64,000 nucleotides of DNA from a virus (lineage: Duplodnaviria; Caudoviricetes): the IMG/VR virus record IMGVR_UViG_3300010347_002030, one strand, 5' to 3'. Positions 8,546-31,556 of the stretch are shown piece after piece (within the stretch, counting starts at the first letter, position 1; every line of letters starts with the position of its first letter). The notes under the pieces were generated by a model. It saw only the letters and a list, made by a program, of their open reading frames with translations, was not told the origin of the DNA and did not search any database. The translations under genes were made by a program, and so were the position numbers.

Positions 8546-8552
8546 TTAGAAA

Positions 8553-14304: not shown

Positions 14305-14572
14305 CAATTCCGTCTTGATAAAAGGTAATTCCATGTCCCTGAGCGTAAGTTAGGAACTGAGGGGCAAATAATTTTGTGATAGTTCCTACGGCTCTGGCAT
14401 AAAGAGCTTTGCAATTGTTGTACACTTTTTGGCGGTCGTTTGCTTTCCAACAATTACATCCTCTTTCATAATCCATCACACAAATACAAGTGGCTTCGAT
14501 GTCTTTGTGAAGGGAACGGAACCCATGAGCATCGACATAGTTTCTGAATTCTGTAACGTTTTTGATGTCCAT
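14282..14572 (-). CDS. Hypothetical Cys-containing protein
   Basis: ATG directly after the upstream stop. Confidence 0.6.
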   Translation of the reverse strand: MDIKNVTEFRNYVDAHGFRSLHKDIEATCICVMDYERGCNCWKANDRQKVYNNCKALYARAVGTITKLFAPQFLTYAQGHGITFYQDGIVIGSIRR

Positions 14573-14573
14573 T

Positions 14574-16733: not shown

Positions 16734-18008
16734 TTAACTCGTGGTTTGATTCTGATTGTTGTTATAAAGTTGTTCTACGTACCAAGGATCGTCAGCGTTG
16801 ATAAGTCGGTTTTGAATTGGATTGATGAATCGAATATCGAGGGTGAAAATATCGAATTCCATGATGCTTCCTTGTTCACCGGAATCTTGAATCATCAAAG
16901 GAAGCTGTTTAATGACTTCCATGTGTTGTTGAGTGAACTGTTTCCCGTCAAATGTAACAACAATATCGTTGTCTGGCGTTGCAGAAATAGGTTTCACCCG
17001 ACGATACATTTCAAATTTTGAAATTTCTTGTTGTCCTTCGATATAATCCTGTAGGATTGCCATCGGTAAGTCGGCGTAGATAGTATCACACCAAGGTTCA
17101 ATGAACTGCAATAATTGAACCGGACAGTTTTTCACGACGAATCCGATGTTATAACGTGGGTGAACGATTGGAAGCATGTTTTGATCGTGTAGAACATCCA
17201 TATGCCACTTTCTCCACCAGTCACGGAACTTGATTTGGCGAAGCTTTGTGTATTCTTCCGAATCGGCGGAACGTTTCCATACTTGTCCATTTCCAATTGG
17301 GATTTCTTGAACTATTTTGATTCCATCTTTGAATCGGCTTCCTCGGCAAGTCATGTGATATACAAAAGCATCCCTTGCTTGGAGGAGTTCGTATCCTTTG
17401 AGAAGAAAGCGATTGAACAAATCTGAATCTTCTAGTTCCATTGGTGCAAATACTCGTTTATCGTGGCCACCAATAGCAAAAAAATCCTCGACATACATAA
17501 TCCATGGAGCAAAAATTCCTTTTGTGGTTATTCCTGCATTGGTTTTTTGCTCTTGTTCAATGAAACGAAGAAACAAATCCTCTTTGAAATCTTCGGGTTC
17601 CATTCCCATGTCGATGACATATTTTTCTGGTCCCGGTGGATGTAATGGTGGTTCTATTCTTGTTCCGGAAATGACTCTACCACGCCGCAAATGTCTCATC
17701 ATTCGTTCTACATAATTTGGTCCTGCAATCATGTCGGCATGAAAAATTCCGAAGACTTCGTTGGCGGCCATTTTGGCTCCAAGGTCATATAAAACAGTGT
17801 GTCCAACCCGTTCTGGTCCTTCATTGCGAGAAACTTTCACATTTTGATCTTGTGTTTTTTGGTTTAACATCCAATCCCATGTGCCGTCTGTCGATGCATC
17901 ATCCAATAGAATGACTTCCACATCTGGGCCAAGATGCTTACGAATACTATTGTAGGCAAACCTTACATACTTAAGATTGTTCCGTGATGGTATAACGAGT
18001 GTTAGCAT
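16734..18008 (-). CDS. Glycosyltransferase family 2
   Basis: LVIPSRN, LDDASTDGT, HAD, GGHD..EDSD. Confidence 0.88.
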   Translation of the reverse strand: MLTLVIPSRNNLKYVRFAYNSIRKHLGPDVEVILLDDASTDGTWDWMLNQKTQDQNVKVSRNEGPERVGHTVLYDLGAKMAANEVFGIFHADMIAGPNYVERMMRHLRRGRVISGTRIEPPLHPPGPEKYVIDMGMEPEDFKEDLFLRFIEQEQKTNAGITTKGIFAPWIMYVEDFFAIGGHDKRVFAPMELEDSDLFNRFLLKGYELLQARDAFVYHMTCRGSRFKDGIKIVQEIPIGNGQVWKRSADSEEYTKLRQIKFRDWWRKWHMDVLHDQNMLPIVHPRYNIGFVVKNCPVQLLQFIEPWCDTIYADLPMAILQDYIEGQQEISKFEMYRRVKPISATPDNDIVVTFDGKQFTQQHMEVIKQLPLMIQDSGEQGSIMEFDIFTLDIRFINPIQNRLINADDPWYVEQLYNNNQNQTTS

Positions 18009-18946
18009 ATGGATGTAAACCTCCATTTGTAATGGTCCACGATAGATGGGAGAGCTTTGTCGAATTCTTGATGATTAGTCCATCCTGTGGATTTCAGTTT
18101 TGAACAATCAACACTATAACGAACATCCTGTCCCGCTCTGGTGAAATTGAAATCACAATAAGGTGTGATATCATCACTATCCGTTAGAAGTTTTACCACT
18201 TTCTGGGCGACGACGAGGTTGGATTCTTCATAGTTCCCACCAATGTTGAATATTTGATTTCTTAAATCGTTTTTGATGATGTGAATAATAGCGTCGGCGG
18301 TATCGGCGACATGAAGCCATGTTCTTCTTGGAGTTCCTTGATTATGAAGTGGGAATTTTCCTTTTTGGATTACAGCTTTGCATATGCATGGAATGAGTTT
18401 CTCCGGATATTGATAGCATCCATAGTTGTTCGTTGGACGAACTATTGTTGCCTCGATTCCGTAAGTTCTCGACCAAGCAGAAATCAACATATCAGCCGCC
18501 GCTTTGGTTGCAGAATATGGATTACTTGGTTTCAGAGCATCTGTTTCCGTATGAGATCCTTCAACGATGTCTCCATAAACCTCATCGGTACTGAACTGGA
18601 GTAGTAAAGGTTTCCATTTTGATTTCGTAATTAAGTTAAGGAGGTTGTGAACTCCATATACATTTGAATCAATGAATTCTTTACTGGAAGCAATGGAATT
18701 ATCTACATGAGTTTCTGCGGCAGTATTGATGATTATGTCACAAGGCCATAGGGTATTCAGATCTTTGATATCTTTTTCCCAAAACTGAAAATTTGGTTCC
18801 CGACTAAAGACTTCTAACATACCAAGATTGGCAGCATAGGTTTTCTTGTCCACGCCATGAACAAACCATCCCTGATCTAGACATTTTTGAACGATGTGGA
18901 CCCCAATAAACCCGAGACACCCCGTCACATAAACTATTTTTTTCAT
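18002..18946 (-). CDS. rmlB: dTDP-glucose 4,6-dehydratase-like SDR
   Basis: GCLGFIG, AAETHVD, STDEVYG, YSATK, NNYG..QYPEKLIP. Confidence 0.88.
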   Translation of the reverse strand: MKKIVYVTGCLGFIGVHIVQKCLDQGWFVHGVDKKTYAANLGMLEVFSREPNFQFWEKDIKDLNTLWPCDIIINTAAETHVDNSIASSKEFIDSNVYGVHNLLNLITKSKWKPLLLQFSTDEVYGDIVEGSHTETDALKPSNPYSATKAAADMLISAWSRTYGIEATIVRPTNNYGCYQYPEKLIPCICKAVIQKGKFPLHNQGTPRRTWLHVADTADAIIHIIKNDLRNQIFNIGGNYEESNLVVAQKVVKLLTDSDDITPYCDFNFTRAGQDVRYSVDCSKLKSTGWTNHQEFDKALPSIVDHYKWRFTSIC

Positions 18947-20277
18947 GTTACTTTTTTGAAGAATTCGTTAACTACTTCTTGAATATAAGTAGTTTGTTCT
19001 TTTGTAATAACTGGACTTGTCCCTAGGAAAAATGTATCTGTTGTAGCTTTTGTGGCATTCGGAAAGAGTTTTTTTATCTTGTTGTAATCGCCATAAGCCG
19101 GAACAAGATCTGAATAGGCTGGTTGAAGCAGTAAGTTTCCACCGAAATAGTTTCTTGTCTGGATTTTTCTATCTTCAAGAAACCGGCAAAACTCAGAACG
19201 TTTAAAGGGGGCTCCATCTTTTACCGTTAATGGAAACGCAAACCATGAAACGTCGGCGTGTTCAATTGCTTTGGGTAGAATAAAGTGTTCTTCGTATTGT
19301 TTGAAAATTGCCAGCAATGCCTCATAGTTTGCCTTTCTTTTAGCAATGATGTCTGGGAGTTTATCCAATTGGGATAGTCCCATAGCGCATTGTAATTCAA
19401 TCGGTTTGAGGTTGTATCCAATTTCCTCATAAACATATTTGTGATCGAAAATTTCCTCTGGGAAAGCTGGAATCCAATTTTTGAAACGACACCCACAAGA
19501 GCCTTTAGTTGACAGATTCGCTGCTTTACCAACACAATAGCATCCTCTTCCCCATTCACGAAGGCTACGAACAACTTTTTCTTGTTCGGCGGTGGAACAA
19601 ACAACAAAACCGCCTTCTCCCATTGTAATATGGTGGGCGGGATAGAAGGAATAGGATGACATTGCACCAAAGGCTCCCAATGGACGACCTCGGTAGGTTG
19701 AACCTAATGCATCACAACAGTCTTCAAGAAAAACAAGTTTATGAGTTGCCACAATATTCATAATGGCATCCATTTCTGGAGGATTTCCCAGAACATGAGC
19801 GAACATGATACCTTTTGCTTGAAAGTAATAAGCAGCCATGTCGGCTTGTTCTGGATTTAAGTTTAAGGTGTCAAGCTCTATATCAACAAACGCAGGAGTA
19901 AACCCATTTTGTAAAATCGGGTTAAGAGTTGTTGGAAAGCCTGCTACCGGAGTTATGATATGACCACGTTTAAGTCCCCATAACCGCTTTGACTTAAGAG
20001 CAGCAACCATTAAGAGATTTGAACTGGATCCACTGTTGGTTACGACACCATACGAGCGGTTAACCAATAAGGGAAATCGTTTTTCAAACTCTACTGCTTT
20101 ATTGCCGAGAACAAGCCATTCATCTAATAATACCGAAATGGCAGAAAGGTATTCTTCATTAGTGTAATATGGGCCAGCATATTGTACCCAATCCTTCCCC
20201 GGTGTCCATTTTTTTGTGGTGTGCTTTTCATTAAAGTACTTGGCAACAAGATCTAAAATAAGGTCTTTGGTGGTCAT
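18943..20277 (-). CDS. rfbH: CDP-4-keto-6-deoxyglucose 3-dehydrase (E1, RfbH/DdhC)
   Basis: NSGSSSNL; SFYPAHHITMGEGG (His in place of the PLP Lys); Fe-S Cys cluster GRGCYC..SCGC; DHKY. Confidence 0.9.
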   Translation of the reverse strand: MTTKDLILDLVAKYFNEKHTTKKWTPGKDWVQYAGPYYTNEEYLSAISVLLDEWLVLGNKAVEFEKRFPLLVNRSYGVVTNSGSSSNLLMVAALKSKRLWGLKRGHIITPVAGFPTTLNPILQNGFTPAFVDIELDTLNLNPEQADMAAYYFQAKGIMFAHVLGNPPEMDAIMNIVATHKLVFLEDCCDALGSTYRGRPLGAFGAMSSYSFYPAHHITMGEGGFVVCSTAEQEKVVRSLREWGRGCYCVGKAANLSTKGSCGCRFKNWIPAFPEEIFDHKYVYEEIGYNLKPIELQCAMGLSQLDKLPDIIAKRKANYEALLAIFKQYEEHFILPKAIEHADVSWFAFPLTVKDGAPFKRSEFCRFLEDRKIQTRNYFGGNLLLQPAYSDLVPAYGDYNKIKKLFPNATKATTDTFFLGTSPVITKEQTTYIQEVVNEFFKKVT

Positions 20278-20963
20278 GATGTAAAGATAGCAATGAAATC
20301 TTTGAGTTTTTGAGCATCTCTGGCTCGATCTCCTTCTAGACTTTTGTAATAAGCTCCGATATCGCCAGCAACCTCGATGCGTTTTTGATATGTTTCATCC
20401 TGTGGAGCTTTTCCGACGGCGGGGTGTATGTGCTCAATAATTAGATTTGGCATATAACATTTTCTTCCTATTCTTTCAGCCAAATCTGTTATCCACTCAT
20501 CGGTATAGGCAGACGCCAGTTTTGGTGGAAGTACATATCCAACCAACTCAACCCAATACCGATGAATGAATCCATGGGTTCCAATTCTGCCCCTTTGAAA
20601 ACCGTCTTCTCCATATACGAACAAAATTCTGTCTTCATATTTGGCAAATTCTTGTTCAACGATAACATCCCATTGTGGCGTCTTAAACACAATATCATCG
20701 GCACCAAAGAAAAAGATGTCGCCTTGAGCAAGCTTGCCGAGTTCGTTATACATTTGGCTACCAATGAGTTTGTTTCCTTGAACAGCATTTACGTTAAGAC
20801 GCTCGGCGGCATATTGTAAAGCTGGAATAGACTCTTCGTCATCGTCGTCTATGTAAACTAATAATTCAACGTTTTGGACATTGCTTACGGTATTGATGAT
20901 ACTGTCCACAAAACGAATGACGTTCTGTGGACGTTTTCTGGTTGGGGCTATAATACTAATCAT
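20274..20963 (-). CDS. Glycosyltransferase family 2-like
   Basis: ISIIAPTRKR, YIDDDD, GADD. Confidence 0.8.
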   Translation of the reverse strand: MISIIAPTRKRPQNVIRFVDSIINTVSNVQNVELLVYIDDDDEESIPALQYAAERLNVNAVQGNKLIGSQMYNELGKLAQGDIFFFGADDIVFKTPQWDVIVEQEFAKYEDRILFVYGEDGFQRGRIGTHGFIHRYWVELVGYVLPPKLASAYTDEWITDLAERIGRKCYMPNLIIEHIHPAVGKAPQDETYQKRIEVAGDIGAYYKSLEGDRARDAQKLKDFIAIFTS

Positions 20964-21892
20964 ACAATAGTTTCAGATTGATATTTTTCGTAATCAAATA
21001 GGTTAGGAGTTAAAAAGAGTTTTTCTTTTATAAATGGACCTAAACCGGGGTCTAGTGCAAACCCGTTTTCGTCGAATTTGGATGGGTCGTGGTCAAAAAT
21101 GTGTGCCCATTCGTCATACCCGAATCCAGTTGAACGGGCTCGTGGGTCATTTAAAATATCTAACATATCTAACCCAAACATAAGATTGTTCCAGTATCCC
21201 TTGGGACCAAGGTGGTCAAAGCCAGATGTGGCTCCATCAGCCGATTTAGTATGATAGATGACCAAATCTTTCACGACAACCCACTGTAGTTTGAGAGCAG
21301 CAAGCATAAAGGAAAATACTGATTCTGTACAGTATGCTTTGAAAATATCCGGAATTAAATGTCCGTAATATTGCAGCACACGGTCATCGTAAAGATTGAA
21401 ATGGAGGTTAATGCACTTACCCACCGGAACAATGAAATCTTGACCAACCCAGACATGATCGGTGGGAAGACCGAACCAATTTTCCTTGCCCATGTCCGTA
21501 TTTGTTTGGAGTGTCACGATACCATATTTACCTGTGACAAATCGCTTGTGCATTTCTTGTAGAGCATGGGTATGATTTTGAACATCCACACCAGAATCAA
21601 CGTAAAGGTACCCATCGTATCTACCCTTTCGTTTAATGATTTCCTGAACAGCTTTGTTGAAAGTAATATTGACTGGTTGAATCTCGTCCATGAAGCAATA
21701 CATGAGACGTTTTCCGAATTTCTTTTGAAGTCCTGTTTTTGTGGCGTTGTGCATAGCACATCCACTTACAACGGTATCGAAAGAAAATCCATTGGTAGTT
21801 TGTTTAAGCAGACTTTCAAGATGTTTGATATAGAGAAACAAATTGTTTTTCTGAATCTCACACGTATTGAATATGACGAGATATTTTTTCAT
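20960..21892 (-). CDS. Putative GT-A glycosyltransferase (paralog of 31553-32527)
   Basis: GT-A-like N-terminus, YVDSG, PDIFKAYCTES shared with the paralog. Confidence 0.6.
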   Translation of the reverse strand: MKKYLVIFNTCEIQKNNLFLYIKHLESLLKQTTNGFSFDTVVSGCAMHNATKTGLQKKFGKRLMYCFMDEIQPVNITFNKAVQEIIKRKGRYDGYLYVDSGVDVQNHTHALQEMHKRFVTGKYGIVTLQTNTDMGKENWFGLPTDHVWVGQDFIVPVGKCINLHFNLYDDRVLQYYGHLIPDIFKAYCTESVFSFMLAALKLQWVVVKDLVIYHTKSADGATSGFDHLGPKGYWNNLMFGLDMLDILNDPRARSTGFGYDEWAHIFDHDPSKFDENGFALDPGLGPFIKEKLFLTPNLFDYEKYQSETIV

Positions 21893-23415
21893 TAATCTCC
21901 GAGAAGTTTTCTCTTCAATTTGATTTTAGCCATTTCTTCAACGTTTCGTCGTTGCTGTAATCCAAACTTACGTTCAACCAAATTTAGATAGGCCGGATTT
22001 GTGAAATAAGTATGCCACGCATTGTCACGAAATGCCAGCACTTCGGCAGATGTGCAATACTTCGTTGGAAGCGGTTCTGACTCATAACTCAAGAAAGCGT
22101 ATCCTTCTGGAGTGGATGGTAATTTCCAACCTTCTCGGATAGCACGAACATATAGAGGACTTCCCGGTAAGGCCATACAAGGATACATATTGGTTGTCTC
22201 GGCGTTGATTTCTAATGCAAGATCCAACGTTGCTTGCATACTTTCTCTGGTATCATCCGGAAAACCAAAAATGAAGTTACTGATAACATTGATATCGGCA
22301 GCTTGGATGTCTTTACACACCTGACGGATATTAACATTCTGGAAGCTTCCTTTACTGACTTCGGTTCTGATTTCTTGCTTGGCGGCTTCGATGCCTAAAG
22401 CAAGCCAATTGATTCCGGCTTTTTTGAATAATTCGAGATATTGTTTACGAACTGTGTCGATACGGGCATAAGCCCACATGTTAAATTTCATCTTTCGGTC
22501 TATGATGTTATTCAATAAGGGTTCAAAGTAACGTTTGTCGAGAAAAAACATTTCATCAGACAGACGTACCGTTTCTACACCATAAGTGGCAAGTTTTTCA
22601 AACTCTTTGGTAATAAAGTTCGGAGACCAGAACCGCATAATGCGACTATCCGCAGAAGAAATTCCATCGGAATTATCTTTACGGTTGAGAATGTTAATCA
22701 TACAGAAATCACAGCCAAATCGGCATCCTAAGCTGGTATAAATAGCCGCAAATGGTGTTCTACGAGGTTTATCGAAGTTGACATGCCAAAAGTGAGCCCG
22801 ATATAAATCAAATGGTTTTTGTTTGTACGGGAGTAAATCCCACGCATATCCCGGTAAGTCTTGGTCCATCTTGTCATTTGGAACCACGAATTCTGGGGGA
22901 TTAAGAACACTAAGGCCATTTGGTTTCCAACCTATTCCCCTGACTTTCTGTAAATCTTCCGATGTTTTCAGATCGGTTAGAAGAAGATTGCGTAAGGCAT
23001 AAACACCTTCGTTAAGGAGTACAAAGTCAACAAACGGTTTGGCTAAGACTTCTTTAGGTAGAGCACTTACATGTGAACCAACCATGCAAATAGGAAGACT
23101 TGGTAAAGCTTCCTTAAGTTTCTCGCCAGTGCGGTAGGCTCCAATCATCATGGTTGTTCCAGAGTTTGGGTTCTGTCCATACATCACGAAAACTACCAAT
23201 CGTGGTTTTAACTCTTCTACACGACGAACTACCTGTTCGTCGGTTAATCGTTCAGCATTGGCGTCTAGAATGCCAACTTTAAATCCAACTGAACGACAAC
23301 TTTGGGCTAGTAGTAAAGACCACGTTGGTGTTTCAATAGCACTAAATTCGTCGGCAAGTGCTTGATAAGCTTCCTTGGCGGTATTTGGTTCGATGAATAA
23401 TACGTCTAAGTTCAT
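21892..23415 (-). CDS. Cobalamin-dependent radical SAM enzyme
   Basis: N-terminal B12-binding domain (GSHVSALP, NEG), CRFGCDFC, LGIE, FIFGFPDDT. Confidence 0.9.
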   Translation of the reverse strand: MNLDVLFIEPNTAKEAYQALADEFSAIETPTWSLLLAQSCRSVGFKVGILDANAERLTDEQVVRRVEELKPRLVVFVMYGQNPNSGTTMMIGAYRTGEKLKEALPSLPICMVGSHVSALPKEVLAKPFVDFVLLNEGVYALRNLLLTDLKTSEDLQKVRGIGWKPNGLSVLNPPEFVVPNDKMDQDLPGYAWDLLPYKQKPFDLYRAHFWHVNFDKPRRTPFAAIYTSLGCRFGCDFCMINILNRKDNSDGISSADSRIMRFWSPNFITKEFEKLATYGVETVRLSDEMFFLDKRYFEPLLNNIIDRKMKFNMWAYARIDTVRKQYLELFKKAGINWLALGIEAAKQEIRTEVSKGSFQNVNIRQVCKDIQAADINVISNFIFGFPDDTRESMQATLDLALEINAETTNMYPCMALPGSPLYVRAIREGWKLPSTPEGYAFLSYESEPLPTKYCTSAEVLAFRDNAWHTYFTNPAYLNLVERKFGLQQRRNVEEMAKIKLKRKLLGD

Positions 23416-23927
23416 GAGTCCCTTTTTGATACAATTGGTTCTTTTACCGGCCAAAATACATTATATTTTGGGTCATTCCATTTAACATGAAGTTGCTGTT
23501 CAATTGGAACGTATGTGTCTGAAAGTTTGTAACTAAAAATACACGTTTCAGATAAACAAAGATGTGCGTTTACACACCCAGATGGAATAAGTATTTGAGT
23601 CCTATTTCTTTCGTTCAAATAAAATGTTTCCACCTTGTCTTTTGTTTCGCCTTCACGTAGATCGATAACAACGAGTTGGATCGAACCTTGGATACATTGA
23701 ACCAGTTTCCATGCTTTGGCGTCTCCGTGAAATCCTCTAAGCACATCCTTTTTTGAAAAAGAAAAGGAATCCACATTGAACGTCAATTTTGGTAAATTCA
23801 GTTTGTTAAGCATCTCCAGCATTTCAATACTGCTGAACGTTTGAACGTTTTCTCCCCGGTGGTCATAAAATACGTTTGGGTGAATGACAACCAATCCGTT
23901 TATTTTTTTGGATTCTTCAAATCGCAT
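23412..23927 (-). CDS. rmlC: dTDP-4-dehydrorhamnose 3,5-epimerase-like
   Basis: DHRG, SKKDVLRGFH, KLVQC, DLR, WNDP..WP, SKRD. Confidence 0.85.
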   Translation of the reverse strand: MRFEESKKINGLVVIHPNVFYDHRGENVQTFSSIEMLEMLNKLNLPKLTFNVDSFSFSKKDVLRGFHGDAKAWKLVQCIQGSIQLVVIDLREGETKDKVETFYLNERNRTQILIPSGCVNAHLCLSETCIFSYKLSDTYVPIEQQLHVKWNDPKYNVFWPVKEPIVSKRDS

Positions 23928-23952
23928 GTTACATCTCTCTACAAATCGTATT

Positions 23953-24915
23953 TTAGACATCCGAGAACGGACAATTGGTGTGTTTTATAATTGGACAAGC
24001 TTCTAACACTTCTCGAATTGAATCGTCCAAGGAATATTTTGGAGTCCAACCGGTCGCTTCCAATTTTTGATTGGAAACAATGTAATTTCTTTGATCTGGG
24101 TCTTTGTTAATTGGAGACTCGGTGATAAAGAAATCCGGAACTTGTTTTTTGATGGCAAGGCACAGGTCCATTTTATTTACATTTGCTGACGTGTTACCAA
24201 GATTGTAAACCTGACCTCGCATTTTTTCTTGGTTGATAATACCTAATAGAATAGCACTAGCCACATCACGCACATGAATGAAGTTTCGTAAAAAATTTGA
24301 CTCGAAAAGGACTATGAAACGGTCATTCCATGCTCTCCATGTGAAATCATTAACGAGCAAATCCATACGCATTTTACGGGACACCCCCATAACCGTTGCC
24401 AAACGGAATGTGATGTTGTTTCCGGAAGCCATAATTGCTTTTTCGGCAGCACATTTAGTCTTTCCGTAAATGGAGATTGGACTCAAAGGGGTTTCTTCGG
24501 TGCAAAATACAGCTTTACCTTCAACGTGCTGACCAAGACCATAACCTGAGTTTGTATTGGCGTGAATAACCAATTGTTCTGGGGTTACTGTCCTTGCCAA
24601 GAATTCAGCACTATCTTGATTAACTTGGCGAGCCTCGATAGGAAAACGATTGCAGATTGGCATTCCAACATAGGCAGCAAGGTTCACAATAACGTCGTGT
24701 TTGGTGATTTGTTCTTTGTAAAGTACTTCGTTTCGAACATCTCCTAAAACAAAACGAAATTTTGGGTTATTACAATATTCCAAGATACCATGTTGTCGAT
24801 GTATGAGGTTATCGAATACAGTAACTTGAAACCCCGCATCCAGAAGAGTTTCAGTTAGAATGTTTCCAATGTATCCAGCTCCACCAGTTATTAATATTTT
24901 TGTCATAGTTATCAT
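23953..24915 (-). CDS. NAD-dependent epimerase/reductase (SDR)
   Basis: GGAGYIG, YGKTK, RLATV, RMDLLVNDF. Confidence 0.88.
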   Translation of the reverse strand: MITMTKILITGGAGYIGNILTETLLDAGFQVTVFDNLIHRQHGILEYCNNPKFRFVLGDVRNEVLYKEQITKHDVIVNLAAYVGMPICNRFPIEARQVNQDSAEFLARTVTPEQLVIHANTNSGYGLGQHVEGKAVFCTEETPLSPISIYGKTKCAAEKAIMASGNNITFRLATVMGVSRKMRMDLLVNDFTWRAWNDRFIVLFESNFLRNFIHVRDVASAILLGIINQEKMRGQVYNLGNTSANVNKMDLCLAIKKQVPDFFITESPINKDPDQRNYIVSNQKLEATGWTPKYSLDDSIREVLEACPIIKHTNCPFSDV

Positions 24916-25877
24916 TGATCCCAGAAACGATACAATTCTTCTATGAAGTAATCTACGCTCTTGTCAAACGGTATGACAGGCTTCCATCCTGTATCTCTGG
25001 TAAATTTTTCCATACTTGGAATTTGAACTGTGATGTCTGACGGTCGTAGAAGGGCAGGATTCTGATAGGTTTTCACGGAGACATTCATTTTATTAATTAG
25101 CATCTCCAAGAAGTCGCCAATTCGGATTCCAACAGTTCCGCCTATATTGTAAACCTCCCCCATCTTACATTTTTGCGTTGCAATCCAATAAGCTTCTGCG
25201 GCTTCACGAACATCAATGAACGTTCTAACGGTTTCCAAGTTTCCATGTTCAAGCACTTTTCGTGTTCCATGCTTGATTTCCAAAATCTGTTTTGCAAACG
25301 CCGTAGCGAACAAGTCTGCTCTACGAGCGTTTAGATAAGTGAACATTCTCGTTCGAACTATGTTCATTCCATAGTTTAGGAAATACACATAACCTAGATT
25401 GTCCTGAGCCATTTTAGAGACAGCATAGGGGTTAATTGGTTTGAGAGGACAATCTTCGGTAATGGGAATGTGTTCTGGTCCAACCGCTCCATACACTTCT
25501 GACGTGCTGCAAATCTGAATGATTGGATTATACCCACTCTTGTTTTTTAAAAGTCTTATTGCTTCTAAGAGGTTCAACGTTATGTTAACGTTGTTTGTAA
25601 CTACTTCATGTGGGTAATCAAACGATTTTCTGACATTGGCCATTGAAGCAATGTGCATTATAATATCCGGACGGTCTTCATCGAAGAGTCTGTAAACAGA
25701 TAAAGAATCGTTCAAATCTAGATATCGTATTTGTAGTTTGTCTTTGATATGAGCGATATTCTTTGATGGAGCGTGGGATCGAGTTGTTCCAATAACCGTG
25801 ACACCCACTTTTTCCAGTAGATATTCGGCCAAGTAACTTCCTCCGCTTCCAGTAATTCCGGTTATTAGAACTTTCAT
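24912..25877 (-). CDS. gmd: GDP-mannose 4,6-dehydratase-like SDR
   Basis: GITGSGGSYLAE, STSEVYG, PYAVSK, GNLETVRTF. Confidence 0.75.
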   Translation of the reverse strand: MKVLITGITGSGGSYLAEYLLEKVGVTVIGTTRSHAPSKNIAHIKDKLQIRYLDLNDSLSVYRLFDEDRPDIIMHIASMANVRKSFDYPHEVVTNNVNITLNLLEAIRLLKNKSGYNPIIQICSTSEVYGAVGPEHIPITEDCPLKPINPYAVSKMAQDNLGYVYFLNYGMNIVRTRMFTYLNARRADLFATAFAKQILEIKHGTRKVLEHGNLETVRTFIDVREAAEAYWIATQKCKMGEVYNIGGTVGIRIGDFLEMLINKMNVSVKTYQNPALLRPSDITVQIPSMEKFTRDTGWKPVIPFDKSVDYFIEELYRFWDQ

Positions 25878-25903
25878 GATACTGATTTCAATAATATTGA
25901 TGA

Positions 25904-25932
25904 ACTATACACTTTTTGTAAAGGAATAGCAA
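25904..25932 (-). promoter_or_regulatory. Sigma70-like promoter inside the sugar cluster
   Basis: TTGCTA-17 nt-TATAGT. Confidence 0.6.
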
Positions 25933-25938
25933 CATATT

Positions 25939-27150
25939 TTATTTTTCTTTTGATAAGATGTCGTGCGCTCTTTGTAGAATTGAAGAACTAGAATCACTTT
26001 TCTCCCCTCCTACGTTGTAGATCATTTTTATACCTAAACGTTGACATGTTTCTTGTTCTTTCGAAGGGGCACTAGTGGGCTTTCTATCTCCTCCGTTACA
26101 AAATATAGATGGACGAACTATTTCTAACGTTTTCGAAACTGTCCCATCTTCATCTATTGCTATAATAGTCTCGTCCACTCCTCGAATGTTTCGGACAATA
26201 TATTCTCGGCTTTTTTCATTTACGACGACAGGAGTGGATTTCATTGCCGCTTGTTTGTCTGAGTTTACGATTACCACAAGATACCCCCCGAGTTTTCTCG
26301 CTTCGGTTATATAGTCTATGTGACCTTTGTGAAGAATTTGAAAGTATCCACTTACTGCTACAACCGGAGTGTATCTTTTTGTAATTTTCCTACAGATATC
26401 CAATAGACGTTCTGTGGAAAGAGTAGATTTGATGAGACTGACATTTTTATCAATCCATTGAATGTTTCCTTTAACATAACCAAGAGCGTTATTTTTTAGG
26501 TCCAACGAAGCATTTCCGATTCCTCGACGGGAAGTAAAAAATAAATCTTTTCCGGTTAATGCACATTTTCCTCCTTGTTCCAAAAAAAGAACATTCAGAT
26601 CGTCAATTGATATGGAAAAGTCAAGGTTTCTGTCTTTTGCTCTTCTTTTTATCTCTGTAAACGTCTTTTTTCCGATATAGCCACACCCCTTGAAGTTTTT
26701 GTGATGATTGAGGGAGTACATGGGAATTCCATAGAATGGTTTAGGCATGTGTCGGTATTGATGTATGCTTATGCACCGATTTAGGAATTCGGATTGGGAA
26801 AGATTGTTTTTCATCCGATTCACGTCTTTATGAATCCATTGGAGGTTTCCTTTTACATAGCCCTGCCTTGAGTCGATTCTATCTAAAAAGGCATTTCCGA
26901 CCTCGAAATCAATGGGTTCTCCTGTAAAAACACACTTTCGGTCTTGTGAGAGATACAGTTCCTCCAATAATGAAATTGAAACGTCAAAGGTAATAAATCG
27001 AGTCTTTGCATTTCGCAGTAAGGAATGATAATAGTCCAACGGAATAAAATTTCCTCCCTCCCATCGGCTGTGCTCATGCCCCCGGCGAGTTCTTAGACAG
27101 CGTTTTAAGCATGTTTTTGTTCGTAAAATATTGGATTCTTGAATCATCAT
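25939..27150 (-). CDS. Fusion of two HNH-like endonuclease repeats to a cytidylyl/adenylyltransferase (RfaE-II/TagD-like)
   Basis: Two C..TG..LD..GYVKGN.QW repeats, then VAVSGYFQILHKGH, NSD, NGGDR, KSDSSS. Confidence 0.8.
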   Translation of the reverse strand: MMIQESNILRTKTCLKRCLRTRRGHEHSRWEGGNFIPLDYYHSLLRNAKTRFITFDVSISLLEELYLSQDRKCVFTGEPIDFEVGNAFLDRIDSRQGYVKGNLQWIHKDVNRMKNNLSQSEFLNRCISIHQYRHMPKPFYGIPMYSLNHHKNFKGCGYIGKKTFTEIKRRAKDRNLDFSISIDDLNVLFLEQGGKCALTGKDLFFTSRRGIGNASLDLKNNALGYVKGNIQWIDKNVSLIKSTLSTERLLDICRKITKRYTPVVAVSGYFQILHKGHIDYITEARKLGGYLVVIVNSDKQAAMKSTPVVVNEKSREYIVRNIRGVDETIIAIDEDGTVSKTLEIVRPSIFCNGGDRKPTSAPSKEQETCQRLGIKMIYNVGGEKSDSSSSILQRAHDILSKEK

Positions 27151-28111
27151 TACCTCCGTTGTAAATTACTGATACGCCCGATTCCTCGAAACTAAATTCC
27201 AAAATGTTATTTGCGAATATGTCGTAGAGCTTTTGTTTTGTAATTGGATTACAGAGAACCAATATAAACCCACAACCGCCCGCACCTAAAAGTTTCCAAC
27301 CACAGGCACCCATACTACGAATTTCATCAATGATTTTGTTGATTTTTCCTGTCGTGATGAACGGGGATATTCGTTGTTTCTCTTCCCAAGTAGCTCTCAA
27401 CAACTTTCCGATGCCTTCGATGTCTTCATTCAAAAAATATCTATGAGCTTCTTTGGCTATTTGAAGGATAGCTGTTTTATCTTTGTGTTCATGCGATTTG
27501 GCAATACTGTTTTGTTCTCTTTGGTCGTTGGTGTAAATCAAAAGCATGGACTTTTGAAGCTCTTCTCGAAATTCCTTGGTTACAGCTAGTGGTTTTACAA
27601 GAAAGTTTCCATTGGGTTGAATTTCAATGGTATTCAATCCTCCATAAGCAGGCCAAATCTGGTCTTGGATACCACCAGCCTCTCGTAAAATAACACGTTC
27701 AATATGAATAGCTTCATAAGCAAGTTCTTTAGGAGAGATTTCTACTTTTCCGAATACTTTGTTTAAAAGGTAAAGCATTCCAACACAAAAAGATGAAGAG
27801 CCACCCAGTCCCGTTCTCGAAGGTACATCCGAAAATGAGTTGAATTCGATGGTTTGGTCAATGTTTCGATATTTTAGTATTTCTCGAATCAGTGGGTTGT
27901 GAATCTCGTCCCAATTCTTAACGATTTGTTGTTGAGAGTAAGTAATAATGCTCTCTTGTGGTAGAATGGGTGGGCGTTTACGCATGGAAAGGTACACATT
28001 CTTATCAATCGTCGTCCCAATAAGGAAAGAGCCATGTTGTTCGTAGAATTCTTTGTAGTCCGTGGAACCTCCAAAGAACGAAATTCTAAATGGTGCCTTG
28101 ACTATAATCAT
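27074..28111 (-). CDS. hddA: GHMP sugar kinase, heptose-7-phosphate kinase-like
   Basis: APFRISFFGGSTD, PSRTGLGGSS, GIQDQ, KLLGAGGCGF. Confidence 0.85.
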   Translation of the reverse strand: MIIVKAPFRISFFGGSTDYKEFYEQHGSFLIGTTIDKNVYLSMRKRPPILPQESIITYSQQQIVKNWDEIHNPLIREILKYRNIDQTIEFNSFSDVPSRTGLGGSSSFCVGMLYLLNKVFGKVEISPKELAYEAIHIERVILREAGGIQDQIWPAYGGLNTIEIQPNGNFLVKPLAVTKEFREELQKSMLLIYTNDQREQNSIAKSHEHKDKTAILQIAKEAHRYFLNEDIEGIGKLLRATWEEKQRISPFITTGKINKIIDEIRSMGACGWKLLGAGGCGFILVLCNPITKQKLYDIFANNILEFSFEESGVSVIYNGGNDDSRIQYFTNKNMLKTLSKNSPGA

Positions 28112-28494
28112 TTCTGTGAGTCTCCTTTCCAGACCCGGTAACTGTCGGAATCTTCATGATGAGTAGAAACCTCAAATATTACTCCATCAGTATTAGCAAT
28201 AAGTTGGTGTGGTTGTCCCGGTCTCTGCCGAACAATATCACCTACATTCAATGTAACTTCGTGAACATCGGCATTCGTCGTGTCAATCCACCGATAGAGA
28301 AAAATTCCATTTTGGACATACCACGTTTCATCTTTATTCATGTGGTAATGCATTGAAAATTTACATCCCTGTTTGAAGATAAGCAATTTGCCGCAATAGA
28401 GATCATTATTTTCAATGATGAGTTCTTCGCCCCATCCCTTCGGAACTTTGCAACCATGGCAAACTTCTGGTTTGATGCATTCGTTATTTTTCAT
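28108..28494 (-). CDS. Cupin sugar isomerase-like protein
   Basis: KGWGEE, SMHYHMNKDETW, PGQPH, EVST. Confidence 0.8.
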   Translation of the reverse strand: MKNNECIKPEVCHGCKVPKGWGEELIIENNDLYCGKLLIFKQGCKFSMHYHMNKDETWYVQNGIFLYRWIDTTNADVHEVTLNVGDIVRQRPGQPHQLIANTDGVIFEVSTHHEDSDSYRVWKGDSQK

Positions 28495-29020
28495 TATAAA
28501 AATCTCCCCATTCTACTAGGATGGTTGATTTACCGTCCGTTCTCGTATAAGCCTTTTCGTAAGCAGGAAAAATCTGATCTGGTTCATCTAATCGAATAAT
28601 TTCGACGTTTGGAGCCATCAAGCGAAAAGCTTCTGTGTAATCTCCGACGTGCTGATGTTGTGGGTGAAGAGGACGTTCTGAACCAATCGATGTTCGGATG
28701 ATGACTTTCGGACGATATGGAATATCTGCCATACCGGGAATCTTATCCAAATGATTTACTATTTGGTTTGTAGCGAGCAAAAGAAAGTTCCATCTGGGAT
28801 AAATTGATATAGGAATTAGTCCCTTGAGCGATAAACCGATACTCATTCCCATTTGCATGTCTTCTGTAACTGGCATTTCCAATAACTTGGCTCTATCCAC
28901 GTCTTTTAATGTGTTTGTCATTGCTGTTCCGGCATATTCCACTGCTTGACCGAGGAACATTGTATTATCTTTTTGTCCTAGCCATGTCATGGCTCTTTTT
29001 AATTCGTCAAAGTATTTCAT
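28484..29020 (-). CDS. TPP-enzyme E1 beta/transketolase pyrimidine-binding subunit (short form)
   Basis: FLGQ, EMPVTED..G, NQIVN, PQHQH. Confidence 0.85.
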   Translation of the reverse strand: MKYFDELKRAMTWLGQKDNTMFLGQAVEYAGTAMTNTLKDVDRAKLLEMPVTEDMQMGMSIGLSLKGLIPISIYPRWNFLLLATNQIVNHLDKIPGMADIPYRPKVIIRTSIGSERPLHPQHQHVGDYTEAFRLMAPNVEIIRLDEPDQIFPAYEKAYTRTDGKSTILVEWGDFYNEK

Positions 29021-29775
29021 AAAATTACTCCATAACTACAATTTGGATTTTCTTGAATAAGATGTTTCATGAGTTTGACATATGTTTCCCCGTCAACGTA
29101 GTCATAAGTTCGAATACAGTTGTTTTCTCCGAACCAATTTTGAAACCAACAACTATGTGGAGAATAAATGTTTGGATTGTGATGTGGAACTTTTTTGTGA
29201 ATGTATGCACCGAGCCAATGGTCAACATAATGGTGTTTTAGAGACGGATTGAAAAAGATTCCATCAAATTTTTCCTCTACGGTTTTTCTAGATACGAGAG
29301 GAAAACTAATAACTGGATAGTTGTAATCAAAAGTTTCGTTGGTTACTCCAGTTGTCCACCTAGAGGACCAACAGGCGTTTGGAAGCCCTTCGTTGTTGTG
29401 GTTTCTTCGCATATTATCAAACCACCCACCACCCAAATTGTAAACTTGATATTCCGCTTCTTTGACTTCTTGGCTTTCAAGAAGAATTAATAAACGATTA
29501 ATGTCAATTTTTAGGATATTATCATCGACGGCCACTGCAATCCATTCTCCGGAGCAATGTTTGTACCCTTTATTAAAAGCATAAGTTGACCCACTTTCCT
29601 TGTCGTCCACTACTAATTTTATATTTGGCGTCTCTAGGTTTTCAACTTGATCTATAATATATTGAGGAGCACAAATAACAAATTCATGCTCATGTGGACC
29701 CAATGCTTCTATAAACCGCAAGCATTCAAAGCCGACGTTCAAATCTCGTTTTGTTGCTATTAAATAGGATATCAT
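29017..29775 (-). CDS. Putative GT2-like glycosyltransferase
   Basis: ISYLIAT, AFNKG, AVDD, HHYVD. Confidence 0.65.
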   Translation of the reverse strand: MISYLIATKRDLNVGFECLRFIEALGPHEHEFVICAPQYIIDQVENLETPNIKLVVDDKESGSTYAFNKGYKHCSGEWIAVAVDDNILKIDINRLLILLESQEVKEAEYQVYNLGGGWFDNMRRNHNNEGLPNACWSSRWTTGVTNETFDYNYPVISFPLVSRKTVEEKFDGIFFNPSLKHHYVDHWLGAYIHKKVPHHNPNIYSPHSCWFQNWFGENNCIRTYDYVDGETYVKLMKHLIQENPNCSYGVIL

Positions 29776-30419
29776 TAGAATTGAATGCGTTCGCCTGTTC
29801 CGGCGTGTGGATATTTGGTTTCGTATTTGTAATAAATGATTTTTTCCAGTTTCATCGTCTTATCCGAAGAAGAATTTAACCAATCTGCATTTGGCTCGTT
29901 TGAGAGTTGAGAAACACCCCATGTTTTTCTGGTGTCAGTACAAACTGATTTGCCGTTATCTTCAATAATCCAAGTGATGGGTAAATCGAAGTTGACAGAA
30001 TATTTCCAGTTTTCGTGAAAAGTTCCTGTTTCCGAAGTCATATCACCGACGAAGCAATAAACATGCTCATCGAGCTTTTGGCGTTTAATGGCTAATGCTA
30101 CGCCATTGGCTATTGGAATGTTTCCGGCTACGATAGCAGAAGAAAAGATTCGGAATTCGGGATAGTTTAGAGCAATAGAACGACCTTTTTTGATATCCGT
30201 TAATAGTTGTTCTGGTGGAACGCCTTTAAGAAGACATTGATAGTGAGACCTCCAAGAGCAGAACACCCAATCCTGTGGCCGAATATCATCAAATATTCGG
30301 ATCATCTGTTCTTCATTGCCATAATACAGATGAACGGGGGCACGAATTTCTTTGTTTTTCCAAGCTTCGCAAACTCGTTCTTCGAAACCGATTAAGTCTT
30401 GAGGCGTAAACTTTTTCAT
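29775..30419 (-). CDS. TPP-dependent dehydrogenase E1 alpha-like subunit
   Basis: PVHL..GNEE, WRSH, GDMTSETG...EDN TPP-binding motif. Confidence 0.88.
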   Translation of the reverse strand: MKKFTPQDLIGFEERVCEAWKNKEIRAPVHLYYGNEEQMIRIFDDIRPQDWVFCSWRSHYQCLLKGVPPEQLLTDIKKGRSIALNYPEFRIFSSAIVAGNIPIANGVALAIKRQKLDEHVYCFVGDMTSETGTFHENWKYSVNFDLPITWIIEDNGKSVCTDTRKTWGVSQLSNEPNADWLNSSSDKTMKLEKIIYYKYETKYPHAGTGERIQF

Positions 30420-30600: not shown

Positions 30601-31556
30601 TACTGATATAGGTTCTTACGTTTCATCCAATCAATCATGTACTTCGTCGGGTCTTTGAAATACTCCATGACAACATCCATGAAATATTGGCGTGCTGCCT
30701 TCCCTTTTTCAACTAGTTCTGAATGTGGAGTCTGGGCGATTTTAAGAAGTTCTTTGTCCAGATGTTCATCTCCCAGTGTTGGGTCAATTTTGTAAAGAAA
30801 ACTAGTATCGTAATCACCTTCTTCCATTACCATTTGTTCTCCGATGATTACTGGGACTCTAGCAAAGAAACAGGTTTCATAAAAACGAATTGTTACCGAA
30901 GATACACCTTCGGGACAAAGGGAAATTAGGTTACGATAAAGTGATTCGATATACGCACTGACAGCGGGACTATCAAGACCTTTTCTTCCACCCCAAGAGG
31001 TATTTAAGGTAAATTCGTGTTTGACCCCTATGCGTTTGAGAGACTCATAAGTTCTAACTCTGGTATTGATTGGATCTGGTTGGCCACGAAAACCAAACGA
31101 TATGTCTTCTGGAAATTCGATTTCACCGCAATCTGGGTTGTTTTTTAAAAATGCCAGTAAACTGCTCATATTGGGTCTTGCCATGATGGGTTGAACCCAA
31201 TGAGCATACTTTGTCGGAGCACAACTTTTAATGGTCTTGTTAAGAACCCATGGATGGGCTATTTGGGCTCCACCGCCATGTCCCGGTATTGCACACCAGT
31301 CTCCTTCAAGGTCGAGGATATGCCGATGTTCATTTCCCGGCATAAAGGTAAATGAATCTTTCAGAATAGGGTGTTGTGGATTATCTATGTTACCATCCGA
31401 CACTTGACCCATGTAAAAGAATTCTGCTTGGTCTGGGTCATCAACAACGGTGCAATGACGTTTGATTCCATCTTTACTGAATGGTGTCGAATCAACGTAT
31501 TCAGGAATCAAGTCCTGACTATGCACCCACCCGTGTTTGTAAATGTAGAGTTTCAT
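30600..31556 (-). CDS. Exostosin/GT47-like glycosyltransferase
   Basis: KLYIY, DPDQAEFF, LCPEG..RFYE..VPVII. Confidence 0.75.
   Translation of the reverse strand: MKLYIYKHGWVHSQDLIPEYVDSTPFSKDGIKRHCTVVDDPDQAEFFYMGQVSDGNIDNPQHPILKDSFTFMPGNEHRHILDLEGDWCAIPGHGGGAQIAHPWVLNKTIKSCAPTKYAHWVQPIMARPNMSSLLAFLKNNPDCGEIEFPEDISFGFRGQPDPINTRVRTYESLKRIGVKHEFTLNTSWGGRKGLDSPAVSAYIESLYRNLISLCPEGVSSVTIRFYETCFFARVPVIIGEQMVMEEGDYDTSFLYKIDPTLGDEHLDKELLKIAQTPHSELVEKGKAARQYFMDVVMEYFKDPTKYMIDWMKRKNLYQ

Follow-up and report, generated by a model that had tools for sequence, protein, structure and literature searches.

A 64,000-nucleotide stretch of DNA from a virus of the class Caudoviricetes (IMG/VR record IMGVR_UViG_3300010347_002030), here called the window, encodes two small proteins, alpha and beta, which are related to the E1 component of 2-oxoacid dehydrogenases and lie in a block of sugar-biosynthesis genes. 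The window belongs to the large genome of a T4-like phage. The best reading of the pair, held at about even confidence from its sequence and by analogy with known enzymes, is that it would use thiamine diphosphate (ThDP) to add a two-carbon unit to C4 of a nucleoside diphosphate (NDP)-linked 4-keto-3-deoxy or 4-keto-3,6-dideoxy sugar. Addition at C4 is preferred because both gene contexts in which such pairs occur centre on a 3-dehydratase and a C4-oxidising enzyme. A preliminary description of this DNA had proposed that the pair is a sugar carboligase rather than a pyruvate dehydrogenase (PDH), and that it makes a branched sugar of the yersiniose or caryophyllose type. The exclusion of a PDH stands, and conserved gene order ties the pair to enzymes for NDP-4-keto-3-deoxy sugars, the kind of acceptor on which YerE and the E1-type branchers of actinomycetes act; carboligation itself is suggested by this setting.

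The two subunits are encoded as follows.

29775-30419, minus strand: mini E1alpha-like ThDP subunit (pyrophosphate, or PP, domain) of 214 amino acids (aa); Pfam E1_dh, 1.2e-16.
28484-29020, minus strand: mini E1beta-like subunit (pyrimidine, or Pyr, domain) of 178 aa; Pfam Transket_pyr.

The pair is an E1 cut to its catalytic PP and Pyr core, lacking the C-terminal domain of beta and the C-terminal third of alpha. The E1_dh match covers residues 12-169 of alpha and profile positions 9-175 of 300, and the alignment with human E1alpha is confined to residues 50-208. In beta, Transket_pyr spans residues 7-169 of the 178, and there is no C-terminal (Transketolase_C) domain. The catalytic residues are conserved. 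Alpha has the ThDP/Mg motif GDM...EDN, in which G125, E153, D154 and N155 are invariant among 36 diverse homologues. Likewise, the cofactor-activating Glu of beta (PVxE), aligned to the Glu of PISE in human E1beta, is invariant among 28 diverse homologues, as is a QH motif that aligns with His128 of the human protein. AlphaFold2 models of the subunits have pLDDT values of 89 (alpha) and 88 (beta). The best Foldseek matches of alpha are the E1alpha proteins of PDH and branched-chain 2-oxoacid dehydrogenase (BCKDH), with TMq 0.65 and TMt 0.39. Those of beta are the N-terminal Pyr half of E1beta (TMq 0.85, TMt 0.48), with DXS at a lower rank.

The missing parts are those by which an E1 works within a complex. 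In complexes of the 1W85 type, the C-terminal domain of E1beta holds the peripheral-subunit-binding domain of E2. The C-terminal region of E1alpha contains regulatory loops and a His used in reductive acylation.

Judged by its sequence, the pair is not the E1 of PDH or BCKDH, because E2 and E3 are absent, the C-terminal parts have been lost, the profile scores fall far below the equivalog cut-offs and a long branch lies between the pair and true E1. Alpha scores 86.8 bits with TIGR03182 against a cut-off of 393.85, and beta 38 against 321. The tree, built from 103 alpha sequences, places true E1alpha beyond a branch of length 7.6 from the mini-alpha family; the root is unreliable, given the long outgroup branches, and the separation of clades is used rather than the point of attachment. 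The sequences beyond this branch include AcoA with its E2 and E3 neighbours, a 365-aa E1alpha from Herbaspirillum and a 279-aa E1alpha from Pelagibacter. The mini-alpha family itself is tight, with a median terminal branch of 0.08. Pfam finds no E2, E3 or AscD-type reductase in any sizeable open reading frame (ORF) of the window, and tblastn searches with genuine AcoC and E3 found neither protein in the window, nor in any of 127 related loci. A control locus (L099) has acoA, acoB, E2 and E3 in a row. A stripped-down pair of 214 and 178 aa with no E2 or E3 had been described beforehand, and the Pfam and tblastn searches confirm it. The same description had named a phylogeny against PDH, together with a search for E2 and E3, as the way to refute its claim; the pair stands apart from true E1 and no E2 or E3 is found.

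The nearest relatives in sequence and fold are nevertheless the E1 proteins of PDH, BCKDH and AcoAB, with which the pair has in common the ThDP/Mg motif, the activating Glu and the division of PP and Pyr domains between subunits. Unlike them, it belongs to a distant clade and is without E2-binding domain, alpha C-terminal region and partners. One could suppose a genuine pyruvate, acetoin or branched-chain dehydrogenase E1 that uses the E2 and E3 of the host, as an auxiliary gene of energy metabolism. The best matches in Pfam, NCBIfam, the PDB and Foldseek, which are all E1 components, would agree with this. Such an enzyme is scarcely credible, however, given the loss of both C-terminal regions, the low profile scores, the long branch, the absence of E2 and E3 from all these loci and the fact that the pair is invariably found inside sugar operons. 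With no lipoyl acceptor available, the carbanion formed on ThDP must go to a carbonyl.

Evidence for the kind of carbonyl can be found in the genes that accompany the pair in other genomes. A protein search with alpha gives 6648 matches, the best 120 of which are all 197-228 aa long and 62-81% identical. Related loci were collected from 31 viral and 66 bacterial sequences, the latter including Nitrospira, Massilia, Herbaspirillum, Pelagibacteraceae, SAR116, Spirulina, Verrucomicrobia, Planctomycetes and Saccharibacteria. In these loci, alpha has a median length of 200 aa and beta one of 178 aa. Neighbours were counted within 6 kb of the 55 alpha copies that have at least 4 kb of sequence on both sides. 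Beta is present in 55/55 cases, a His-type 3-dehydratase of the DegT family in 52/55, an HddA-like kinase in 52/55, a Cj1427-like extended short-chain dehydrogenase/reductase (SDR) in 49/55 and a B12-binding radical S-adenosylmethionine (rSAM) enzyme in 45/55; these counts overstate the independence of the loci, many of which come from related Nitrospira genomes, but the spread across phyla is wide (Nitrospirota, Pseudomonadota, Verrucomicrobiota, Planctomycetota, Cyanobacteriota and Saccharimonadota, as well as phages). The His motif of the ColD type is present in 75 neighbouring homologues of the 3-dehydratase. The rSAM gene is often immediately upstream of alpha, and in many phage and cyanobacterial loci it adjoins or overlaps it.

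Many bacterial cassettes also contain genes for making an activated heptose. An example is the Herbaspirillum cassette (L046), which encodes GmhA, GmhB (178.9 bits, cut-off 178), an HddC-like protein, an HddA-like kinase and an Fcl/ColC-like epimerase-reductase. HddC has homologues in 53 bacterial loci, and 49 contain Fcl-like genes, the Fcl/ColC-like enzyme scoring 407 bits to GDP-fucose synthase. The conserved substrate therefore looks like a GDP-heptose type rather than NDP-glucose, because the fixed partners are the ColD-like, HddA-like, Cj1427-like and rSAM proteins, joined in bacteria by GmhA, GmhB and HddC.

Counterparts of the fixed partners are present around the pair in the window, together with further enzymes of sugar modification.

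33325-34539, minus strand: ColD-like NDP-4-keto-sugar 3-dehydratase of 404 aa, dependent on pyridoxal or pyridoxamine phosphate (PLP/PMP); PDB 2GMS and 3GR9 (ColD/WbdK), E ~1e-45.
27074-28111, minus strand: HddA-like GHMP sugar kinase; GHMP_kinases_N and GHMP_kinases_C domains.
25939-27150, minus strand: cytidylyltransferase-fold sugar-phosphate nucleotidyltransferase fused to two endonuclease-like repeats; CTP_transf_like at 267-357.
24912-25877, minus strand: GMD-type NDP-sugar 4,6-dehydratase; Pfam GDP_Man_Dehyd, 5.5e-61; motif STSE.
23953-24915, minus strand: Cj1427-like extended SDR; PDB 6VO6/6VO8, E 6e-101; motif TNS.
23412-23960, minus strand: RmlC-like 3,5- or 5-epimerase; Pfam dTDP_sugar_isom, 9.4e-36; TIGR01221, 98.9 bits (cut-off 155.75).
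21892-23454, minus strand: rSAM enzyme with a B12-binding domain; Pfam B12-binding and Radical_SAM.

The catalytic His of the ColD-like protein is found in the sequence YYAHH and aligns with His188 of ColD. An assignment of this DegT-family protein as an aminotransferase was dropped, as it carries the ColD-type His. For the kinase, HddA is by far the best NCBIfam model (124.7 bits, E 5.5e-36), at a cut-off of 600. The SDR at 23953-24915 is a probable NDP-heptose C4-dehydrogenase by sequence comparison; its PDB matches 6VO6 and 6VO8 are taken here to be the GDP-heptose C4-dehydrogenase Cj1427. With the motif TNS in place of TDE or TSE, and with the 6VO6 match, it was rejected as a dehydratase or a simple reductase. 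The "SDR reductase" of the preliminary description is present as an extended SDR, but is probably a C4-dehydrogenase rather than a simple reductase. Homologues of the GMD-type dehydratase, at 50-54% identity, adjoin alpha in loci of Verrucomicrobia, Planctomycetes and Saccharibacteria. The nucleotidyltransferase domain is the C-terminal ~150 aa of its protein (RfaE domain II, 3e-20), and a stand-alone homologue of 141 aa lies between the kinase and ColD genes in the sister loci L001-L005 (L005 12115-12540). The rSAM enzyme has HpnJ, BchE and PhpK as its best NCBIfam models, every score lying far under the cut-off, and AprD4 as its sole PDB match. AprD4 is a diol dehydratase, and HpnJ, the top-ranking of the three models, is a sugar-rearranging enzyme.

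These genes suggest a route. Its sequence of steps is a proposal, as are its donor and acceptor, the site of branching and a heptose as the sugar used by the phage. The starting sugar would most likely be a heptose 7-phosphate supplied by the host. The HddA-like kinase would phosphorylate C1 of the sugar phosphate, after which the nucleotidyltransferase would activate it. The NDP-sugar could then be oxidised at C4 by the Cj1427-like SDR, the GMD-type 4,6-dehydratase or both. Next, the ColD-like enzyme would remove the 3-hydroxyl group, and the RmlC-like protein might epimerise the product. Pyruvate would be decarboxylated by the alpha/beta pair, and the hydroxyethyl-ThDP carbanion formed in this way would attack the C4 ketone of the 3-deoxy- or 3,6-dideoxy-4-keto sugar, giving a 4-C-acetyl branched sugar with a tertiary alcohol. 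Finally, the rSAM enzyme may modify the branched sugar further, and phage glycosyltransferases would install it.

The acceptor in the window is most probably, from the identities of these genes, the heptose-type product of the kinase, the nucleotidyltransferase, the Cj1427-like or GMD-like enzyme and the ColD-like enzyme. NDP-glucose, the substrate proposed earlier, fits less well with such partners. In the phage gene set of this type, module A, no gene stands out as a C4 reductase, in keeping with a ketone that ligation uses up.

Several observations weigh against addition at C4 of a heptose-type sugar, among them the relatedness of the Nitrospira loci mentioned above. In the 49 bacterial loci with an Fcl/ColC-like enzyme, this protein, the C4-dehydrogenase and the ColD-like dehydratase would already complete a colitose-like 3-deoxyheptose without branching. 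The rSAM gene is linked to alpha as tightly as the dehydratase gene is, and the nearest relative of its product with a solved structure is a diol dehydratase. GmhA, GmhB and HddC are all absent from the window, the kinase is far below the HddA cut-off and the fold of the nucleotidyltransferase differs from that of HddC. A heptose is consequently not established for the phage. Lastly, a YerE-like enzyme is encoded as well in a phage locus described below (L109) and in the Pelagibacter loci; if this enzyme and the mini pair both branch C4, one of them would be redundant.

A complete Fcl/ColC-like route would leave the ThDP enzyme and the rSAM enzyme free to act elsewhere, for instance on the C6-C7 side chain. 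In such a scheme, the ColD-like and Fcl/RmlC-type enzymes would finish the 3-deoxy ring independently. The rSAM enzyme would turn the C6-C7 diol of the heptose into an aldehyde or ketone by dehydration or oxidation, and the pair would attach a pyruvate-derived two-carbon unit to it in a DXS-like acyloin condensation, leading to a nonose-type sugar. The Fcl/ColC-like enzyme would use up the C4 ketone, and the close linkage of rSAM and alpha (45/55), as well as its resemblance to AprD4 and HpnJ, would find an explanation. Likewise, aldehydes are easier ThDP acceptors, DXS appears among the lower Foldseek matches of beta, and the 6-hydroxyl is retained in the Cj1427-type route (PMC10680097). In the window, however, the 4,6-dehydratase would remove the 6-hydroxyl. 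Furthermore, a second type of pair, alpha2/beta2, occurs with an RfbH-type dehydrase, an RmlB-like protein and an SDR but without rSAM or kinase, where the 6-deoxy sugars have no side chain that could be extended. A side-chain ligation is rather unlikely, though a genuine alternative.

Another possibility is that the pair does not ligate anything to an NDP-sugar. It could be a plain 2-oxoacid decarboxylase, or it could resemble a transketolase and provide or shorten some small precursor, for example an aldehyde destined for a substituent or a ketose phosphate on which the kinase acts. The gene order alpha, glycosyltransferase-like ORF, beta, cupin, kinase, nucleotidyltransferase resembles the front end of a pathway, and there are weak NCBIfam matches to transketolases. 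The cultured Synechococcus phage S-SM2 has a fused homologue beside a zinc alcohol dehydrogenase gene and near genes for a class II aldolase and a carbohydrate kinase. Such a role is very unlikely, since GmhA in the bacterial cassettes makes sedoheptulose 7-phosphate the input, for which no special ketose synthase is needed. Moreover, the steadiest neighbours are the 3-dehydratase and the C4-dehydrogenase rather than isomerases, and alpha2/beta2 modules have no kinase at all. A transketolase-like supply of sedoheptulose 7-phosphate was rejected as the leading explanation in view of GmhA and of the constant dehydratase and C4-dehydrogenase partners.

The fused homologue of S-SM2 (L098 11983-13191, SSM2_198) has 402 aa, combines alpha and beta, and is annotated as a "transketolase central region-containing protein". 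Half-size phosphoheptose isomerases and small nucleotidyltransferases are encoded in the same sugar cluster as the aldolase and the alcohol dehydrogenase. Prochlorococcus phage P-TIM68 also has a fused alpha-beta homologue in a sugar cluster.

Ligation at C4 draws further support from the phage members of the family. The window alpha falls in a well-supported clade of 15 members, almost wholly from phages, which holds two paralogous types. Type 1 (alpha1/beta1) includes the window pair, and its members are 64-65% identical to the window alpha. The type 1 order is Cj1427-like SDR, glycosyltransferase-like gene, rSAM, alpha1, beta1, kinase, small nucleotidyltransferase, ColD-like and RmlC-like. 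Type 2, whose alpha2 is 51% identical to the window alpha, has the order RfbH-type 3-dehydrase, RmlB-like dehydratase, alpha2, beta2, SDR. At least five distinct phage lineages show this order, and several of these have neither rSAM nor kinase nearby. By analogy, it is the yersiniose logic gene for gene. In this context, where the sugar would be 6-deoxy, the C4 ketone is the only evident electrophile. The SDR that follows alpha2/beta2 (SDR302) is 18% identical to the bacterial Fcl-like SDR, and has no specific relationship to it.

The window contains the first two genes of the type 2 order, and a glycosyltransferase of family GT2 at the end of the block.

18943-20277, minus strand: RfbH/DdhC-type (E1) 3-dehydrase, dependent on PMP and a [2Fe-2S] cluster; NCBIfam RfbH NF011936, 444.1 bits (cut-off 423).
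18002-18946, minus strand: RmlB-type NDP-glucose 4,6-dehydratase; TIGR01181, 284.5 bits (cut-off 365); motif STDE.
16734-18026, minus strand: GT2 glycosyltransferase; Pfam Glycos_transf_2, 1.4e-17.

The RfbH-type protein matches PDB 3BCX at E 3.6e-94. It keeps the equivalents of His220 and of C193, C251, C253 and C261, with a five-residue insertion before the last Cys. The dehydratase is RmlB-like, its TIGR02622 score of 72.8 bits being below the cut-off of 278. The two proteins are 61% (RfbH) and 55% (RmlB-like) identical to those of L005. Orthologues of the RmlB-like gene directly precede alpha2/beta2 in L107-L113, L025 and L029. In the window, alpha2, beta2 and their SDR of the SDR302 type are absent, and the RmlB-like gene runs straight into the GT2 gene, whose orthologues follow alpha2, beta2 and SDR in L109, L025 and L029. 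The window has thus lost, or never had, alpha2/beta2 and their SDR. The yersiniose logic of the preliminary description therefore holds for the sister phages, but the pair and reductase that would complete it are not those of the window.

The RfbH-type and RmlB-like enzymes would provide a second acceptor, a hexose-type 4-keto-3,6-dideoxy sugar, which the same pair may or may not use. If it alone were used, NDP-glucose would be converted to NDP-4-keto-3,6-dideoxyglucose by these two enzymes and ligated by alpha/beta to a yersiniose-type octose, as first described. This is supported by a full-scoring RfbH, with its His and Fe-S ligands intact, beside a dehydratase with the STDE motif. In sister phages both genes directly precede an alpha/beta pair and an SDR, and in the window the remaining pair is the only candidate for this acceptor. 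It is nevertheless quite unlikely to be the main route, since the window pair belongs to the alpha1 subclade, with ColD-like, HddA-like, Cj1427-like and rSAM partners. The RfbH gene is 9.5 kb away from alpha, with the whole heptose-type set in between, and the window has no glucose-1-phosphate nucleotidyltransferase, E3/AscD or SDR302-type reductase. Compared with the CDP-3,6-dideoxyhexose (Ddh/Asc) pathway, the window shares the E1 enzyme (DdhC/RfbH), but not E3 (AscD) or the glucose-1-phosphate cytidylyltransferase; neither of these last two was found in any scanned ORF of the window.

One type 2 locus, L109 (IMGVR_UViG_3300017716_002757), has a second ThDP system. At 5332-8998, a YerE/ErwE-like ThDP enzyme of 603 aa is encoded between the RfbH and RmlB-like genes. 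The same stretch, directly upstream of alpha2/beta2, encodes an acylating acetaldehyde dehydrogenase (BphJ-like) and an aldolase of the DmpG/BphI type. By comparison with the published kit (PMC9306805), a single phage operon in L109 unites the genes of an erwiniose-type system with those of an E1-type system. The presence of a YerE/ErwE-like kit inside the RfbH/RmlB-like module indicates that this module feeds ThDP-dependent C-branching.

YerE-like genes are found near the mini pair in 5/127 loci. In a Pelagibacteraceae single-cell genome (L088 5042-11146), three ThDP systems follow one another in one SAR11 sugar cluster: an AHAS/YerE-like enzyme (566 aa), a longer E1 pair (279 + 305 aa, with Transketolase_C) and the mini alpha/beta pair.

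Enzymes of the E1 type that branch sugars (alphaKADH2 type) are known from the antibiotic clusters of actinomycetes. The alpha/beta enzymes AviB1/B2 of avilamycin, Pau11/12 of paulomycin and the aldgamycin pair add a pyruvate-derived two-carbon unit to sugar ketones, and the alpha/beta enzyme KbDH of kibdelomycin performs the addition in vitro on ketone analogues (PMC12247030, PMC4425429, PMC4753412). No structure of a ketone-accepting alphaKADH2 exists (PMC12247030). Like the window pair, these branchers are two-subunit E1-type ThDP enzymes without E2 or E3, encoded in deoxysugar operons next to enzymes that make keto sugars, and their proposed reaction is the addition of an acetyl equivalent to a sugar ketone to form a tertiary alcohol. 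There are also differences. Pau11 and Pau12 have 325 and 345 aa (PMC4425429), compared with 214 and 178 aa for the window subunits, in which the beta C-terminal domain and the C-terminal third of alpha are gone. The actinomycete enzymes belong to secondary-metabolite clusters, whereas the family of the window pair is found in Gram-negative and other environmental bacteria and in T4-like phages. Its partners, GDP-heptose-type enzymes and a B12 rSAM, are likewise unlike those of the actinomycete branchers.

The second known class comprises YerE/YerF (yersiniose) and ErwE/ErwI/ErwJ (erwiniose), from O-antigen clusters of Gram-negative bacteria. Their logic is similar to that of the window, with a 4,6-dehydratase, a 3-dehydrase, a ThDP carboligase that uses an NDP-4-keto-3,6-dideoxy sugar, and a reductase. 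The products of YerE and ErwE are for surface glycans, as would be the case here, and L109 has both systems side by side (PMC9306805). YerE and ErwE, however, are single-chain AHAS-like enzymes (DC superfamily) of ~560-600 aa with the architecture TPP_enzyme_N, M and C. The window pair matches E1_dh and Transket_pyr only and belongs to another ThDP superfamily. Erwiniose and caryophyllose are made from a 3,6-dideoxyhexose and aldolase-made long keto acids via YerE-like enzymes (PMC9306805). There is no basis for such long branches in the window, because, unlike ErwE systems, it has no aldolase or acetaldehyde dehydrogenase. The caryophyllose type proposed earlier thus falls away, neither a YerE-like enzyme nor an aldolase for its keto acids being present. 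An alternative derivation of erwiniose from a heptose, by C7 methylation through the rSAM enzyme and a two-carbon branch, was discarded in view of the published derivation.

The surroundings of the pair are closely matched by the capsular GDP-heptose pathways of C. jejuni. There, Cj1427 and the HS:5 PLP-dependent C3-dehydratase produce GDP-3-deoxy-4-keto-heptose in vitro (PMC10680097). The GMD-type protein, the His-type 3-dehydratase and the cupin-fold epimerase correspond, as would the HddA-like kinase and the Cj1427-like SDR, and bacterial mini-pair cassettes add GmhA, GmhB and HddC, as in C. jejuni. In the phage, a cytidylyltransferase-fold nucleotidyltransferase takes the place of HddC, and GmhA and GmhB are absent. 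The C. jejuni pathways, for their part, have no ThDP enzyme and no B12 rSAM, and end with a C4 reductase.

In the published picture, YerE-like enzymes serve lipopolysaccharide (LPS)-type structures, while alphaKADH2 and transketolase-type branchers serve specialised antibiotics (PMC12247030). An E1 pair of minimal size that is a constant part of heptose-type surface-sugar cassettes, both in many phyla and in T4-like phages, does not agree with this picture, although the enzyme and its pathway logic are variations on known ones. If the pair is a carboligase, no smaller two-subunit ThDP enzyme that forms tertiary alcohols on sugars is known. The family is abundant and includes the ecologically dominant Nitrospira and SAR11, whose surface glycans are largely uncharacterised; because of this abundance, the cassette probably marks a sugar that is common in nature and still to be described chemically. 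A wider proposal, plausible at somewhat less than even confidence, is that the mini E1 family and the B12 rSAM act on GDP-heptose-derived 3-deoxy-4-keto intermediates to form a branched or chain-extended sugar of at least nine carbons. Nitrospira, SAR11, Burkholderiales, Verrucomicrobia and cyanobacteria would commonly carry this sugar on their surfaces, and T4-like phages would have acquired the cassette, with duplication and recombination, as a means of glycosylating the host or their own virion. If true, this would overturn the view that LPS-type branched sugars rest on YerE-like enzymes alone. The shuffling of modules between heptose and hexose routes is relevant to the ways in which large phages alter host surfaces or decorate their virions. 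The cultured phages S-SM2 and P-TIM68, with their fused homologues, provide an experimental handle.

The sugar block at 18002-30419 is entirely on the minus strand and operon-like, with overlaps of 1-77 nucleotides between most neighbours. The 4,6-dehydratase, RfbH-type dehydrase, 3,5-epimerase, SDR and alpha/beta pair that had been described as one co-oriented block are all present there. The earlier description does not mention that alpha and beta are non-adjacent, nor does it mention the kinase, the nucleotidyltransferase, the cupin, the GMD-type dehydratase, the rSAM enzyme or the GT-A proteins, and the ColD-like gene lies outside the stretch that it covered. The remaining genes of this region are the following.

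20274-20963, minus strand: divergent GT-A (GT2-like) glycosyltransferase; Atlas feature score 0.99 to phage "GT2 family" clusters, structure TM 0.94.
20960-21892, minus strand: divergent GT-A (GT2-like) glycosyltransferase; Atlas structure neighbours are GT2 families, TM 0.64-0.67.
28108-28494, minus strand: small cupin; Pfam Cupin_2, 3.4e-7.
29017-29775, minus strand: weak GT2-like ORF of 252 aa between alpha and beta; Glycos_transf_2, 22.6 bits (cut-off 23.3).
31553-32527, minus strand: divergent GT-A-like protein, paralogue of 20960-21892; ~30% identical to a gene of L005.

Several features are particular to the window. It has both types of 3-dehydratase and both types of 4,6-dehydratase with one ThDP pair, a glycosyltransferase-like gene between the subunits, and a nucleotidyltransferase fused to endonuclease-like repeats. 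The ORF at 29017-29775 has no homologue among the 97 related loci, in which alpha and beta are mostly adjacent. The proteins at 20960-21892 and 31553-32527 (310-324 aa) have no Pfam or NCBIfam match, the GT-A protein at 20274-20963 has none in Pfam, and the first two are both ~30% identical to a single sister-phage gene that lies between the Cj1427-like SDR and the rSAM. The cupin is 83% identical to one directly before the RfbH-type dehydrase in L007 and 49% identical to SSM2_211 of S-SM2. A megablast search of the sugar block against phage records gives no match, and a literature search for the combined cassette found nothing.

The T4-like character of the phage is evident from its other genes. 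The window encodes a DnaB-like helicase, ribonucleotide reductase, clamp-loader proteins, a dUTPase-like protein, a 5'-3' exonuclease and a family-B DNA polymerase that is split around an endonuclease gene. Among cultured phages, Microcystis phage Mel-JY01 has the closest polymerase (40%), with T4-like cyanophages next. The G+C content of 0.38-0.42 is flat over the whole window, the sugar block included. Glycan synthesis occupies a minus-strand block from ~14.3 to 42.8 kb and a further region at 53-64 kb with more glycosyltransferases, a methyltransferase, a sulfotransferase and GT11, so that the window gives ~28 kb and ~11 kb to this function.

On the plus strand at 53059-63999 are at least three glycosyltransferase genes, as well as genes for a Methyltransf_24 protein (sugar O-methyltransferase-like), a sulfotransferase and a GT11 fucosyltransferase-like protein. 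Given the Methyltransf_24 and sulfotransferase genes in this region, methyl and sulfate groups may be present on the final glycan.

A 255-aa protein with a dUTPase domain is encoded at 37958-38725 on the minus strand, amid glycosyltransferase genes. Two ORFs of 404 and 136 aa at 14922-16543, also on the minus strand, separate the GT2 gene at 16734-18026 from small genes at 14282-14918. The GT2 orthologue of L029 is directly next to orthologues of these small genes, without the two intervening ORFs.

The DNA polymerase consists of two plus-strand ORFs, 44448-46886 and 47465-48901, which correspond to the N-terminal and C-terminal parts of PHROG 262. Between them, the endonuclease-like ORF 46924-47484 (plus strand) overlaps the second half. 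The nucleotidyltransferase protein at 25939-27150 has two N-terminal tandem repeats, which match the C-terminal part of this endonuclease-like ORF with 41% and 36% identity.

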